A stretch of DNA of 64,000 bases from Thermoplasmata archaeon (GCA_021792255.1 JAJYUZ010000002.1:192001-256000); one strand, 5' to 3'. Counted from the first letter of the stretch, positions 11,137-16,160 are shown. A program made the numbers and translations. Notes: generated from the letters alone by a model not told the origin.

Positions 11137-12788
11137 TGCCGGAAGGTGATTTAATGAAGATTGTGAATGAAATAGCAAAAGATTTAGGAATTACAGACGA
11201 TGAACTGGAATTTTATGGGAAATACATGGCTAAAGTGAACCCTAGTATACTTGGAAGGCTGTCCGGAAAACATAATGGAAAGATGATTCTGGTGACGGCC
11301 ATCAACCCCACTTCCGCAGGGGAAGGCAAGACTACAACAACGATAGGTCTTTCACAGGGTCTGAAAAAAATCGGAAAGAAAGTCATGGTCACGATTAGAG
11401 AGCCATCTCTCGGACCAAACTTCGGAATAAAGGGAGGTGGGACGGGGGGTGGAAAATGCCAGCTATTGCCGGCTGATGAAATTAACCTCAATTTTACCGG
11501 AGATTTCCCTGCCATATCGGCCGCTCACAATCTTCTCTCCGCACTCGTGAACAATCACGTCTTCCAAGGAAATGAACTAGGATTTGACCTGAAGAAGATT
11601 TCGTGGAAGAGAACGATTGATATGAACGATCGTTCCCTGAGACAGATTCTGGTGGGAATTGGTGATCAGGGAGGTGCGCTGGTCGAAGATACATTCCTCA
11701 TAACTCCCGCATCAGAGATAATGGCTATAATGGGGTTTGCGGAGAATTATGATATGCTGAAAGATATGCTTTCCAAGATAACGGTAGGTTATACCAAAGA
11801 AGGTAAGAGGATCACGGCCGGAGACTTGAAGGCACAAGGTGCTATGGCGGCCCTTCTCAAGAACACAATCAAGCCAAATCTTGTCCAATCGACCGAGGGG
11901 GTTCCGGGATTCGTTCATATCGGTCCTTTTGGTAACATAGCACACGGCCACAACAGTATAGTGGCGGACAAAATTGCTCTCAAGTTAGCGGATTATGTTA
12001 TCACGGAAGCTGGCTTCGGCTCAGAGTTGGGGGCACAGAAATTCGTAGATATAGTTCTCAGAAGAGCAGGATTTGATCTAGATTTAGTAGTCCTCGTAGT
12101 CTCCATAAAGGCTCTCAAACATCACGGAGGAATGAAGTCCACGGAGAAAGGAGGAGTAGAATTTCTTGAGAAAGGGATAGACAACTTGTTCTACCACATA
12201 GGAAACGTAGAGAGGTATGGCCTGCCTCTCATAATATCTCTCAACAGGTTCAAGGATGATCGGGAGAACGAGATCGAGTATTTGAAACGAGAAACCGAGA
12301 AAAAGGGTTACAGAATGGTCATTAACGAAGGCTACTCAAAAGGTGGGGATGGAGCCGTGGAATTTGCCCAGAGCGTGGTAGAAATGCTGGAAGCCAAGGC
12401 TTCCAATCCAAGAAATATCACCTTCTCATATGAGAGAGACGAGCCCGTCAAGACAAAAATTGACAAGATAGCCTCAAAAGTTTATGGAGCTTCAAAAATT
12501 GAATATTCCAAGAAGGCGTTGAGGGTTCTGAAGAGAGTGAAGGATGAAAGACTGGATTTCTTGGACGTCTGCATGGCGAAGACGCAGTACTCGATCACCG
12601 ATGATCAGACCAAGCTGGGATGGCCGAAGGACTTCACAATAACGATCGAAGATATAATGCTCTCCACGGGTGTCGGATTCGCGGTACCATTGCTCGGAGA
12701 GATCATGACGATGCCAGGGCTTCCAAAGCATCCCATCTCTGAGGAAGTTAATATAGATGAAAGGGGAAACATCACCGGGTTACTCTGA
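11127..12788 (+). CDS. fhs: Formate--tetrahydrofolate ligase
   Basis: TAINPTSAGEGKTT, REPSLGP, GPFGNIAHG, TEAGFG, MAKTQYS, MTMPGL. Confidence 0.97.
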   Translation: MEMMPEGDLMKIVNEIAKDLGITDDELEFYGKYMAKVNPSILGRLSGKHNGKMILVTAINPTSAGEGKTTTTIGLSQGLKKIGKKVMVTIREPSLGPNFGIKGGGTGGGKCQLLPADEINLNFTGDFPAISAAHNLLSALVNNHVFQGNELGFDLKKISWKRTIDMNDRSLRQILVGIGDQGGALVEDTFLITPASEIMAIMGFAENYDMLKDMLSKITVGYTKEGKRITAGDLKAQGAMAALLKNTIKPNLVQSTEGVPGFVHIGPFGNIAHGHNSIVADKIALKLADYVITEAGFGSELGAQKFVDIVLRRAGFDLDLVVLVVSIKALKHHGGMKSTEKGGVEFLEKGIDNLFYHIGNVERYGLPLIISLNRFKDDRENEIEYLKRETEKKGYRMVINEGYSKGGDGAVEFAQSVVEMLEAKASNPRNITFSYERDEPVKTKIDKIASKVYGASKIEYSKKALRVLKRVKDERLDFLDVCMAKTQYSITDDQTKLGWPKDFTITIEDIMLSTGVGFAVPLLGEIMTMPGLPKHPISEEVNIDERGNITGLL

Positions 12789-13995
12789 ATTTGTTACCGT
12801 GAAGGACGTAGAAGAAGCCTACGATAGGCTCAAGGGTGTCATAAAGAATACTCCCCTCGAAAGATCGAGCTCGATCAGTGAGCTCAGCGGAGCAGATGTA
12901 TTCCTCAAACTAGAAAATCTGCAGAAGGGTGGATCATTCAAGATAAGGGGGGCGTACAATCTTCTGAGCAGAGCTAAAAAAGATGTTGTTGCAGCCAGTG
13001 CGGGGAACCACTCGCAAGGGGTCGCACTTGCATCGTCATTGCTTGGCCTGAAGTCTCTCGTCGTGATGCCGCAGTTTGCACCGCCTATAAAGGTAATAGC
13101 CACTCAGAAGTACGGGGCCGAAGTCCTCCTCTACGGAAACACATTCGACGAGGCTGCGGAAAGGGCCAGAAAAATTTCTAGAGAGGAGGGGAAGGTATTC
13201 GCCCACGCTTTTGACAACAAGTACGTTATAGCCGGACAGGGTACAATAGGCATTGAAATTCTTCAAGAGATGAACGATTTTGATTACATCGTCATTCCTG
13301 TGGGAGGTGGAGGACTAATAGGAGGAATTGCCACCTACCTGAAAGAGAAGGGATACAGAGGCAAAATCATAGGTGTAGAAGCCGAGAATGCCGCAGCAAT
13401 GAAGATATCTCTCAAGCTGGGGAAACTTACGAAACTTGAATCGGTTGCGACGATCGCAGATGGCATCGCAGTAAAGTCTCCATCTGAATCCACGATGAGA
13501 ATAGCAATGAAGTATGTGGACCGAGTTGTGACGGTCAGCGACGAAGACATATCCACAGCGATGTTCACCTTGCTCGAAAGAGGAAAGATAGTTTCAGAAC
13601 CTGCAGGAGCTGCTTCCGTCGCGGCCTTGATAAAGGGAAAGATCGGGACCAAAGGTAAGAAGGTGGTAGCCCTCATATCGGGAGGGAACGTCGATATGCC
13701 TCTTCTCTCCCAGATAATAGAAAAGAATCTTCTCGAAACTGGCAGGGAGTTTATTCTCAGTTTCATCGTCAACAACATTCCGTCTGAGATGAAGAAGGCG
13801 ATAGAACTGTTTTCAGAGATGAAGCTGAATGTGGAGGAGCTCCACACTGAACTGTTCGGCGAAGACATAGGCATAGGAAAACAGAAGATTACGGTCAAAT
13901 TGAAAATTTATGGAAACGAGAACCTCACAAAGATTAGGAATAGGTTTGACTCTCTGGGTTTCGATATAATCAGCATAAGGGGGGCAAAATTCTAG
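12757..13995 (+). CDS. ilvA: Threonine ammonia-lyase with C-terminal ACT-like domain
   Basis: LENLQKGGSFKIRGA, ASAGNHSQG, PVGGGGLI, SGGNVD. Confidence 0.9.
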   Translation: MKGETSPGYSEFVTVKDVEEAYDRLKGVIKNTPLERSSSISELSGADVFLKLENLQKGGSFKIRGAYNLLSRAKKDVVAASAGNHSQGVALASSLLGLKSLVVMPQFAPPIKVIATQKYGAEVLLYGNTFDEAAERARKISREEGKVFAHAFDNKYVIAGQGTIGIEILQEMNDFDYIVIPVGGGGLIGGIATYLKEKGYRGKIIGVEAENAAAMKISLKLGKLTKLESVATIADGIAVKSPSESTMRIAMKYVDRVVTVSDEDISTAMFTLLERGKIVSEPAGAASVAALIKGKIGTKGKKVVALISGGNVDMPLLSQIIEKNLLETGREFILSFIVNNIPSEMKKAIELFSEMKLNVEELHTELFGEDIGIGKQKITVKLKIYGNENLTKIRNRFDSLGFDIISIRGAKF

Positions 13996-14185
13996 TGTAC
14001 CCCGGAATTAACAAGGAGAATCATTATCATCCCCTCTGACCTTTCCGGGGATGTGGGACTTCTTCTGGCCTTGAGTTCACAGATAGGCGACACGCCATAA
14101 CTCACTAAGGGGCCCAAAAATCCCTATAGTTCCCCGTCGTCCAGCATCTATCACTTATCAAGCGCTATTCCATAGGGAACGAACT
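13993..14185 (-). ncRNA. Box H/ACA pseudouridylation guide RNA, three hairpins
   Basis: Three stem-loops (14180-14129, 14124-14055, 14050-14000), each followed by an ANA box (AUA 14127-14125, ACA 14054-14052, ACA 13998-13996). Hairpins 1 and 3 have internal pockets and apical UGA..GAU K-loops. Confidence 0.8.
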
Positions 14186-14193
14186 AAAATATA

Positions 14194-14595
14194 TTATCGA
14201 CTCTTAACTTTTTCGAATCTAGCTATGACTCTGGTCTTGAGTCCCCCTCTAGCCTTAAACTCGCCAACAACTGCCATAAACCTTGGGGAAACGCTTTTCA
14301 CAAGATCTTCCAGAATCTTGTTTACTGCGTTCTCCTGAAAAATTCCGACGTTCCTGTACCTGTGCAGGTAGAGCTTGAATGACTTCAATTCGATTATCTT
14401 CTTGTCGGGGAGATAGTGCACTGTTATCTTCCCAAAATCAGGCATACCTGTCTTCGGGCAGATTGAGGTGAACTCGTCAGTCTCTATGGTTACGTGAGTT
14501 GAATTCTCTTGGTAGGGGAAAATAACCGAATCGATTTTCCCGAGGTCAAGATTCTTGATGCTCTTCTGCAAGTTCTCGTACTCTGACACTCTCAA
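14194..14595 (-). CDS. queF: NADPH-dependent preQ0 reductase, type I (preQ1 synthase)
   Basis: EFTSICPKTGMPDF (catalytic Cys/Asp), QueF motif ELKSFKLYL, FQEN, ARGG. Confidence 0.93.
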   Translation of the reverse strand: MRVSEYENLQKSIKNLDLGKIDSVIFPYQENSTHVTIETDEFTSICPKTGMPDFGKITVHYLPDKKIIELKSFKLYLHRYRNVGIFQENAVNKILEDLVKSVSPRFMAVVGEFKARGGLKTRVIARFEKVKSR

Positions 14596-15791: not shown

Positions 15792-16160
15792 ATGGCAGAA
15801 ACTAGTTATGTAAGATTCCAAACGCCCGACGACTTAAGGACGAAAGCGCTACAGCTCGTAGAGGTTTCATCAGAGACGGGAAAGGTTAGGAAAGGAACGA
15901 ATGAAGTGACAAAGGTAGTGGAGAGGGGAGAGGCAAAGATAGTTGTTATAGCTGAAGATATTCAGCCCCCAGAAGTAGTACTTCACATACCTTTACTGTG
16001 CGAAGAAAAGGGAATACCCTATTTCTATGTACAGAAGAAGGAAGACCTTGGACAGAAGGTAAAGCTCAAGAGTTCGGCTGCTGTTGCAGTTGTTGAACCG
16101 GGCAACGGAAAACAGTTACTGACTGAGCTCACGGACAAGTTCAAGGAAATTAAGAAATAA
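15792..16160 (+). CDS. rpl7ae: Ribosomal protein L7Ae (eL8)
   Basis: GKVRKGTNEVTK, IAEDIQPPEVVLHIPLLCEEK. Confidence 0.98.
   Translation: MAETSYVRFQTPDDLRTKALQLVEVSSETGKVRKGTNEVTKVVERGEAKIVVIAEDIQPPEVVLHIPLLCEEKGIPYFYVQKKEDLGQKVKLKSSAAVAVVEPGNGKQLLTELTDKFKEIKK

Follow-up and report, generated by a model that had tools for sequence, protein, structure and literature searches.

We found a three-hairpin RNA on the minus strand of a 64,000-nucleotide (nt) stretch of a Thermoplasmata archaeon genome (GCA_021792255.1, JAJYUZ010000002.1:192001-256000). This whole stretch is referred to here as the window, and positions are counted from its first letter. The RNA, whose core of 189 nt occupies 14180..13992, very probably comes from an unannotated gene that stands by itself, has its own promoter of the B recognition element (BRE)/TATA type and encodes an archaeal box H/ACA guide small RNA (sRNA) with three hairpins; both its expression and the pseudouridylation that it would direct are predicted from the sequence. 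The class itself is well known, its members directing the pseudouridylation of specific uridines in ribosomal RNA, and what is new here is the family and not the kind of system.

Three conserved hairpins on the minus strand

The core, in which RNA position p corresponds to window position 14181-p, was delimited by a covariance model (CM) match, alignments and pair counts. The model, R1, matches it with 212.9 bits (G000:C6:205992-206180, where G000 is the genome that contains the window). We aligned 21 homologous sequences, 20 of them distinct, and built our own structure model of 7 helices and 53 base pairs (bp). Across the alignment, 92.9% of the modelled pairs are paired, compared with 37-63% when the partners are slid, and changes on both sides, that is, compensatory ones, were observed in 15 pairs against 2-8 in the slid controls. 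The covariation score was reached by 0/500 shuffles, and RNAalifold on the aligned homologues also predicts three hairpins. The stems are variable, but the GA dinucleotides, both strands of each pocket and the outer A’s of the three A-N-A boxes (ANA boxes; N is any base) are invariant in the 21 sequences. The succession of lower stem, pocket and upper stem that characterizes archaeal box H/ACA RNAs is itself supported by covariation, and the three hairpins are far beyond chance.

A first-pass annotation of this DNA, made by a model without database searches, had proposed a triple-hairpin H/ACA guide at 13993..14185 on the minus strand, with stems and ACA boxes that should covary and be conserved in relatives. 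The stems indeed covary and the box A’s do not change, and every letter quoted for the three hairpins is present in the sequence. Of the proposed span, the end at 14185 takes in five unpaired upstream nt, and the other end, 13993, falls just past the last ACA (13998-13996). The choice of strand was confirmed by the stem pairs, many of which are G.U in this orientation (UG:20, GU:12 and others) and would be A.C mismatches on the other strand, indicating that the minus strand is the RNA strand.

The published rules for productive H/ACA folds, in the part of PMC4652768 drawn on here, describe a lower stem of 7-9 bp, a distance of 14-16 nt from the closing pair of the upper stem to the ACA (productive folds have 14-15 nt), a GA stem with 8-11 steps (10 in crystal structures) and an ANA box, and count competing pairing within the pocket against a productive fold (PMC4652768). 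The features of the RNA are as follows.

13992..14180, minus strand: whole three-hairpin H/ACA sRNA
14129..14180, minus strand: hairpin 1, with a 7-bp lower stem GUUCCCU/GGGGAAC, a pocket and a 10-step GA stem with a bulged A
14168..14173, minus strand: hairpin 1 5’ guide strand AUGGAA, in which GGAA faces 23S UUCC 3’ of the predicted target; UGGAAUA is invariant in 21 sequences
14151..14159, minus strand: hairpin 1 K-loop GA-UAAGU-GA, by sequence reading; GA and UGA are kept in 21/21 sequences
14136..14141, minus strand: hairpin 1 3’ guide strand GACGAC, facing 23S GUCGUC 5’ of the U2511 equivalent; invariant in 21 sequences
14125..14127, minus strand: hairpin 1 ANA box AUA, 14 nt after the upper stem; both A’s invariant
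14055..14124, minus strand: hairpin 2, with a 9-bp lower stem, a 5+5 pocket, an upper stem with a kink-turn (K-turn) and an apical stem-loop
14111..14115, minus strand: hairpin 2 5’ pocket strand GGGCC; UGGGC is kept order-wide
14077..14103, minus strand: hairpin 2 K-turn, with GA at 14103-14102, the C-stem hairpin at 14101-14082, and a 3-nt bulge plus GA at 14081-14077
14064..14068, minus strand: hairpin 2 3’ pocket strand CCAGA; YCAG (Y, pyrimidine) is kept order-wide
14052..14054, minus strand: hairpin 2 ANA box ACA, which follows the 9-bp lower stem without a gap and the upper stem at 14 nt
13999..14051, minus strand: hairpin 3, with an 8-9 bp lower stem below the pocket and a K-loop at the end of its 10-step GA stem
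14037..14042, minus strand: hairpin 3 5’ guide strand AGGUCA, in which GGUCA, invariant, faces 23S UGACC of helix 69
14021..14028, minus strand: hairpin 3 K-loop GA-UAAU-GA, with invariant G153 A154 ... A156 A157 U158 G159 A160
14008..14012, minus strand: hairpin 3 3’ guide strand GUUAA, in which GUUA, invariant, faces 23S UAAC
13996..13998, minus strand: hairpin 3 ANA box ACA, 14 nt after the upper stem

The spacing from the upper stem to the ANA box is exactly 14 nt in all three hairpins, and in the boxes both A’s are invariant and the middle base alone varies. The first-pass annotation had given 14 nt for hairpin 3, which stands; in hairpin 1, the upper stem most likely begins one pair lower than was drawn there, at U14.G39, so that the distance to AUA is 14 nt as in hairpins 2 and 3. 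The lower stem comprises 7 bp plus 1 nt in hairpin 1 and 8 bp in hairpin 3, where 19 of the 21 relatives have 9, and the 3’ guide measures 6 nt in hairpin 1 and 5 nt in each of the other two. Compensatory changes were found in four pairs of the hairpin 1 upper stem and in a total of eight pairs of the hairpin 2 helices, of which the C-stem covaries as well. The K-turn or K-loop with a GA stem of about 10 steps was identified by sequence reading, and its GA dinucleotides are invariant. Hairpin 2, in which the GA stem has 9 steps with a bulged C, had been described as lacking a clear K-loop. It has none, but an L7Ae-type motif that had been overlooked is present as an internal K-turn, 5’-..AGU-GA-G[stem-loop]C-UGU-GA-AC..-3’, with G78, A79, U102, G103 and A104 invariant. 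The archaeal H/ACA architecture claimed at first holds.

The RNA is widespread in the order. A blastn search with a 211-nt stretch matched, at 77-95% identity, 23/23 further members of the family, which belong to four genera, and 0/16 genomes of other families in the order. The CM scans, run under strict filters so that a miss does not equal an absence, detected the RNA at full length in 93/150 genomes drawn from the order, several of them single-contig and the complete genomes G015, G041, G044, G047, G062 and G092 among them, with 23/24 in family f1, 0/1 in f2, 1/1 in f3, 14/16 in f4, 17/21 in f5, 1/1 in f6 and 36/85 in f7. The same model matched 16 times among 151 genomes of the class; five of these matches lie outside the order (E values of 1e-8 to 1e-11), and in them hairpins 2 and 3 can be made out. 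Two-hairpin homologues that have no hairpin 1 occur in family f5 (L105, L110, L119, L120 and L123). An exact-pattern scan with 22 nt from hairpin 1 over 185,579 species genomes returned 33 loci, of which, by title, 23 are Thermoplasmata, Thermoplasmatales or other archaeal metagenome-assembled genomes and 10 are bacterial. Seven of the bacterial loci are from Nostoc (L042, L048, L053, L057, L059, L063 and L067; the others are L050, L061 and L064), which points to a chance match in a sequence conserved in Nostoc.

Predicted 23S targets of hairpins 1 and 3

Neither 16S nor 23S rRNA was found in the window’s genome (93.55% complete, 11 contigs), and the targets were therefore read in the rRNA of relatives. 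The genome holds 5S rRNA, signal recognition particle (SRP) RNA and RNase P RNA. The distribution of the RNA places the lineage in the Thermoplasmatales. In the relatives, the 16S and 23S are on different contigs, which fits this placement; unlinked 16S and 23S have been noted for Thermoplasma in the part of PMC3608112 drawn on here. The target set consisted of the 23S of two same-genus genomes, the 16S of four and the 23S of seven further genomes of the order, with E. coli numbering set by alignment.

The same-genus 23S contains the sequence GGGUAAC-UA-UGACCCUC, where hairpin 3 would pair through GUUA:UAAC and GGUCA:UGACC (4+5 bp) on the two sides of UA. In the alignment, the U left unpaired falls on E. 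coli U1915 of helix 69, the site that had been read from this pocket in the first-pass annotation, and canonical pairing at the U1915 equivalent is present in 6/6 lineages tested (3-5 plus 6-7 bp). Hairpin 1 would pair with AUGUCGUC-UG-UUCCUAUCC of the same-genus 23S through GACGAC:GUCGUC and GGAA:UUCC (6+4 bp) around UG; the U that stays unpaired corresponds by alignment to E. coli U2511 of the peptidyl-transferase region. Here the earlier prediction, conditional on a variant 23S, was borne out: the relatives’ 23S has the GUCGUC variant and the U aligns, but only UUCC of the proposed 7-nt 3’ half pairs (4 bp). Among the five lineages having hairpin 1, three show canonical pairing at the U2511 equivalent (G001 6+4, G018 4+6 and G016 6+3). 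In G018, which belongs to another family, both guide strands of hairpin 1 have changed and the same 23S site is still paired 4+6.

Bipartite complementarity between pocket and rRNA around an unpaired 5’-UN-3’ was found for hairpins 1 and 3 and not for hairpin 2, and the invariant guide letters of hairpins 1 and 3 are exactly the pairing ones. When pockets were shuffled and Watson-Crick pairs only were counted, an equal site in 23S plus 16S arose in 2/2000 trials for hairpin 1 and 5/2000 for hairpin 3. The predicted targets of hairpins 1 and 3 are well supported. In family f5, the 23S of two genomes (G015 and G019; L105 is the RNA of G015) has UC-UCCC in place of UG-UUCC 3’ of the U2511 equivalent, and the guide may have been lost together with the target change in this one lineage.

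The window’s genome encodes candidate protein partners, with profile scores of 71.3 bits for Nop10, 45.8 bits for the Cbf5 DKCLD domain and 93.6 bits for L7Ae, all over the cut-offs. From these features we infer transcription, ribonucleoprotein (RNP) assembly and pseudouridylation as follows. The RNA would be transcribed from the minus strand by its own BRE/TATA promoter, each hairpin would bind one L7Ae at its K-loop or K-turn, and each lower stem with its ANA box would take up one Cbf5-Nop10-Gar1 set. Hairpin 3 would then pair with 23S helix 69 and offer the U1915-equivalent U to Cbf5, and hairpin 1 would pair with the peptidyl-transferase region and offer the U2511-equivalent U. Hairpin 2, which has the same architecture and an invariant pocket, is an orphan.

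Promoter-like element, orphan hairpin and rival explanations

Upstream of hairpin 1 we observed a promoter-like element, and further upstream lies a gene for an L7Ae-family protein.

14203..14215, minus strand: BRE/TATA-like promoter element, with an A-run at -33..-31 and TTAA at -27..-24 from the first base of hairpin 1
15792..16160, plus strand: L7Ae-family gene (the profile match of 93.6 bits), context only

Among 28 loci, A is present at -33..-31 in 22-24, and -27..-24 are T/A positions with no G; a motif AA-N(1-4)-TWAW (W, A or T) begins at -40..-28 in 27/28 loci from several families. Such spacing is that of an archaeal BRE/TATA promoter, and it would put the transcription start at about 14180. 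The element overlaps the last codons of the upstream QueF-like open reading frame (ORF; 14194-14595, minus strand). A linkage with the L7Ae gene, 1.6 kb from the RNA gene, was considered and dropped because the neighbourhood differs in the other families examined and the linkage is not conserved there. On the other side, a convergent ORF for a pyridoxal phosphate (PLP)-dependent enzyme occupies 12757-13995 (plus strand); a weak match to the C/D-box family sR17 at 13785-13852 (plus strand; 23.1 bits against a gathering threshold of 36, E 0.005) lies inside it in the same sense and is probably due to chance.

Several observations weigh against reading the RNA as a modification guide. Over the whole window, Rfam 15 at gathering thresholds matched no family to the RNA, and a search of 13700-14500 at E<=10 returned no H/ACA family and only two weak unrelated matches, which agrees with the earlier description of the RNA as unannotated. 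The guide duplexes are short (hairpin 3, 9 bp; hairpin 1, 10 bp), and when G.U pairs were allowed the shuffled pockets reached an equal site in 59/2000 trials for hairpin 1 and 261/2000 for hairpin 3. The hairpin 1 register is shifted by 3 nt in G045 (9+5 bp with 5 unpaired nt), G017 keeps GACGAC and has no 5’-guide match in hairpin 1, and some f5 genomes are without hairpin 1 altogether. The missing 16S and 23S of the window’s genome belong here too, as does a match to Gar1 that is weak (21.6 bits) and below the cut-off. In hairpin 2, GGCC of the pocket strand can pair with a second GGCC located where the other pocket strand meets the upper stem, and because of this possible pairing the hairpin departs from the rule against competing pairs. 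Canonical scans with hairpin 2 found no 5+5 bp site in the same-genus set of four 16S and two 23S or in four 23S from the order at large, and no canonical target in the 45 tRNAs, 5S, SRP RNA and RNase P RNA of its own genome; a whole-genome scan gave chance-level matches only. The first-pass annotation had likewise assigned no target to hairpin 2, and none of the rRNA, tRNA, 5S, SRP and RNase P scans gave a convincing site.

The tRNA set yielded one side observation: a call of selenocysteine tRNA (tRNA-SeC) by aragorn at G000 C9:21881-21970, outside the window (locus L148 101-190), was rejected, since Rfam identifies an ordinary tRNA there (65.8 bits), whose anticodon is CAU and whose anticodon loop is enlarged by an insert of ~17-19 nt, that is, an intron-bearing CAU tRNA.

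A non-canonical match of hairpin 2 falls near the 5’ end of 23S (UGG, 3 unpaired nt, GGCUCG...) at the same place in 6/6 lineages, with sizes from 3+6 to 3+12 bp. Hairpin 2 could accordingly be imagined as a conserved non-modifying H/ACA domain whose UGGGCC/CCAG clamps 23S nt ~30-45 (UGG ... GGCUCGGG) in ribosome assembly, a proposal that we consider unlikely; if true, hairpin 2 would be an archaeal counterpart of the eukaryotic snR30/U17-type chaperone on the same RNA as two ordinary guides. The broader version, in which the H/ACA-fold RNP is mainly non-modifying and all hairpins, or at least hairpin 2, serve as a chaperone of rRNA folding or processing by base pairing, as eukaryotic snR30/U17 does, seems to us very unlikely. 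It would account for a hairpin 2 pocket that is invariant in the family, with UGGGC/YCAG kept order-wide, and yet has no canonical target, and it gains from the 23S 5’-end match, which in G015 reaches 3+12 bp with 0/300 shuffles as good. In the window’s family, however, this match is at chance level (41/300 shuffles in G001, 42/300 in G016 and 137/300 in G017), and since the pocket and the 23S 5’ end are both conserved, the six lineages are not independent. Moreover, for hairpins 1 and 3 there are clean canonical targets, both at positions known to carry pseudouridine elsewhere. Chaperone roles for orphan archaeal guides have been raised before (PMC3608112, in the part drawn on here). As a hairpin 2 target, the site near 23S nt 34 was rejected, being at chance level in four lineages while the other two have their best match near nt 857-859. 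That latter region was also rejected, as only f4 pairs there (5+9 bp, 4 unpaired nt) and the 23S of f1 is incompatible, and so was the E. coli U2580 region (CUGA-GAUG-GGUUCA), which fits the f4 and f7 guides with 4 unpaired nt and not the window’s family.

The position of the RNA, which begins 14 nt past the stop codon of the QueF-like ORF and whose 3’ tail reaches into the stop codon of the PLP-enzyme ORF that converges on it, would also suit a cis element, either a 3’ untranslated region or terminator of the former or an antisense element at the end of the latter. We regard this as highly improbable. The flanking genes in other families are unrelated (TrkH, peptidase M50, a Na/H exchanger, seryl-tRNA synthetase and others), indicating that the RNA is not an appendage of one gene; the BRE/TATA-like element stands at a fixed distance across the loci; and a sigma-70/terminator scan, itself uninformative for an archaeon, found no intrinsic-terminator-like site. 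To chance hairpins in an intergenic spacer we assign next to no probability: the single-sequence fold, which consists of three consecutive hairpins, is weak by itself with z of only -2.36, which speaks for it, but order-wide conservation, compensatory changes, and invariant pockets and A-N-A boxes contradict this explanation.

Relation to known H/ACA guides

The three-hairpin guide sRNA resembles several published RNAs, as far as the excerpts drawn on in this section describe them. Pab40, Pf7, Pho40 and Afu4 from Pyrococcus and Archaeoglobus are three-motif H/ACA sRNAs, in which motif 3 guides the helix-69 pseudouridine at P. abyssi 23S 2016 and A. fulgidus L1970 (PMC2377435, PMC4652768) and motif 2 changes its target between species (PMC2377435). 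The RNA of the window shares with this group three motifs with the last one at helix 69, the K-turn/K-loop, the ANA boxes and the 14-15 nt spacing, and in both cases the middle motif stands apart, with an unstable target there and as an orphan here. In contrast, motif 1 of Pab40 targets P. abyssi 2588, which is about E. coli 2496 by an inferred offset of 92, whereas hairpin 1 is read for 2511. Any orthology with Pab40/Pf7/Afu4 would be putative, the likeness being one of published description; no Rfam family matches the window’s RNA. In Haloferax volcanii, the two stem-loops of sR-h45 guide three 23S pseudouridines (PMC7075261) at L1956, L1958 and L2621 (PMC4652768). This euryarchaeal guide, too, has several hairpins, a target in helix 69 and a fold of the 10/5/9 type. 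Unlike the RNA described here, it has two hairpins, one of which serves two neighbouring helix-69 uridines, while hairpin 3 is read for the U1915 equivalent only.

The position predicted for hairpin 1 can be placed on the Pyrococcus map by way of the E. coli enzymes RluE, RluC and RluB, whose sites we take to be 2457, 2580 and 2605. The Pab35 sites 2549, 2672 and 2697 are the pseudouridines made by these three enzymes in E. coli (PMC2377435). The offset between the two sets is a constant 92, which makes P. abyssi 2603 the equivalent of E. coli 2511. For Psi2603, no guide was found in Pyrococcus according to the part of that study drawn on here, and aCBF5-aNOP10-aGAR1 alone formed it on a 20-nt fragment (PMC2377435). 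By the inferred offset this is the position targeted by hairpin 1, so that the same site is guide-independent in Pyrococcus whereas here it faces a conserved complementary pocket, a predicted guide. It appears from this offset and this predicted guide that the family of the window’s RNA uses a guide at the 2511 equivalent where Pyrococcus does not. In yeast, snR34 presumably acts at the position of the hairpin 1 target (25S Psi2880), and snR191 is, as we assume, a guide at helix 69, at what we believe to be the position of the hairpin 3 target. Both sites would thus be guide-dependent in yeast, but these are eukaryotic two-hairpin snoRNAs without K-turns. According to the part of a 2021 review drawn on here, it is rare for an archaeal H/ACA RNA to contain two or three hairpins (PMC7991803). 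The literature that we searched reports no H/ACA RNA for Thermoplasma or its relatives; a Methods Enzymol paper (ref. 25 of PMC2377435) may list predictions for other archaea.

In summary, the Thermoplasmatales gain an order-wide, apparently undescribed family of H/ACA guides, of which weaker relatives occur in other orders of the class, and the covariance model can serve to annotate the RNA across the order. A small problem for further study is posed by the middle hairpin, an orphan whose pocket is invariant. Hairpins 1 and 3 provide two directly testable predictions of 23S pseudouridines, one of them at the equivalent of E. coli U2511, and the family bears on the exchange of guide-dependent and guide-independent Cbf5 activity at a single rRNA position.

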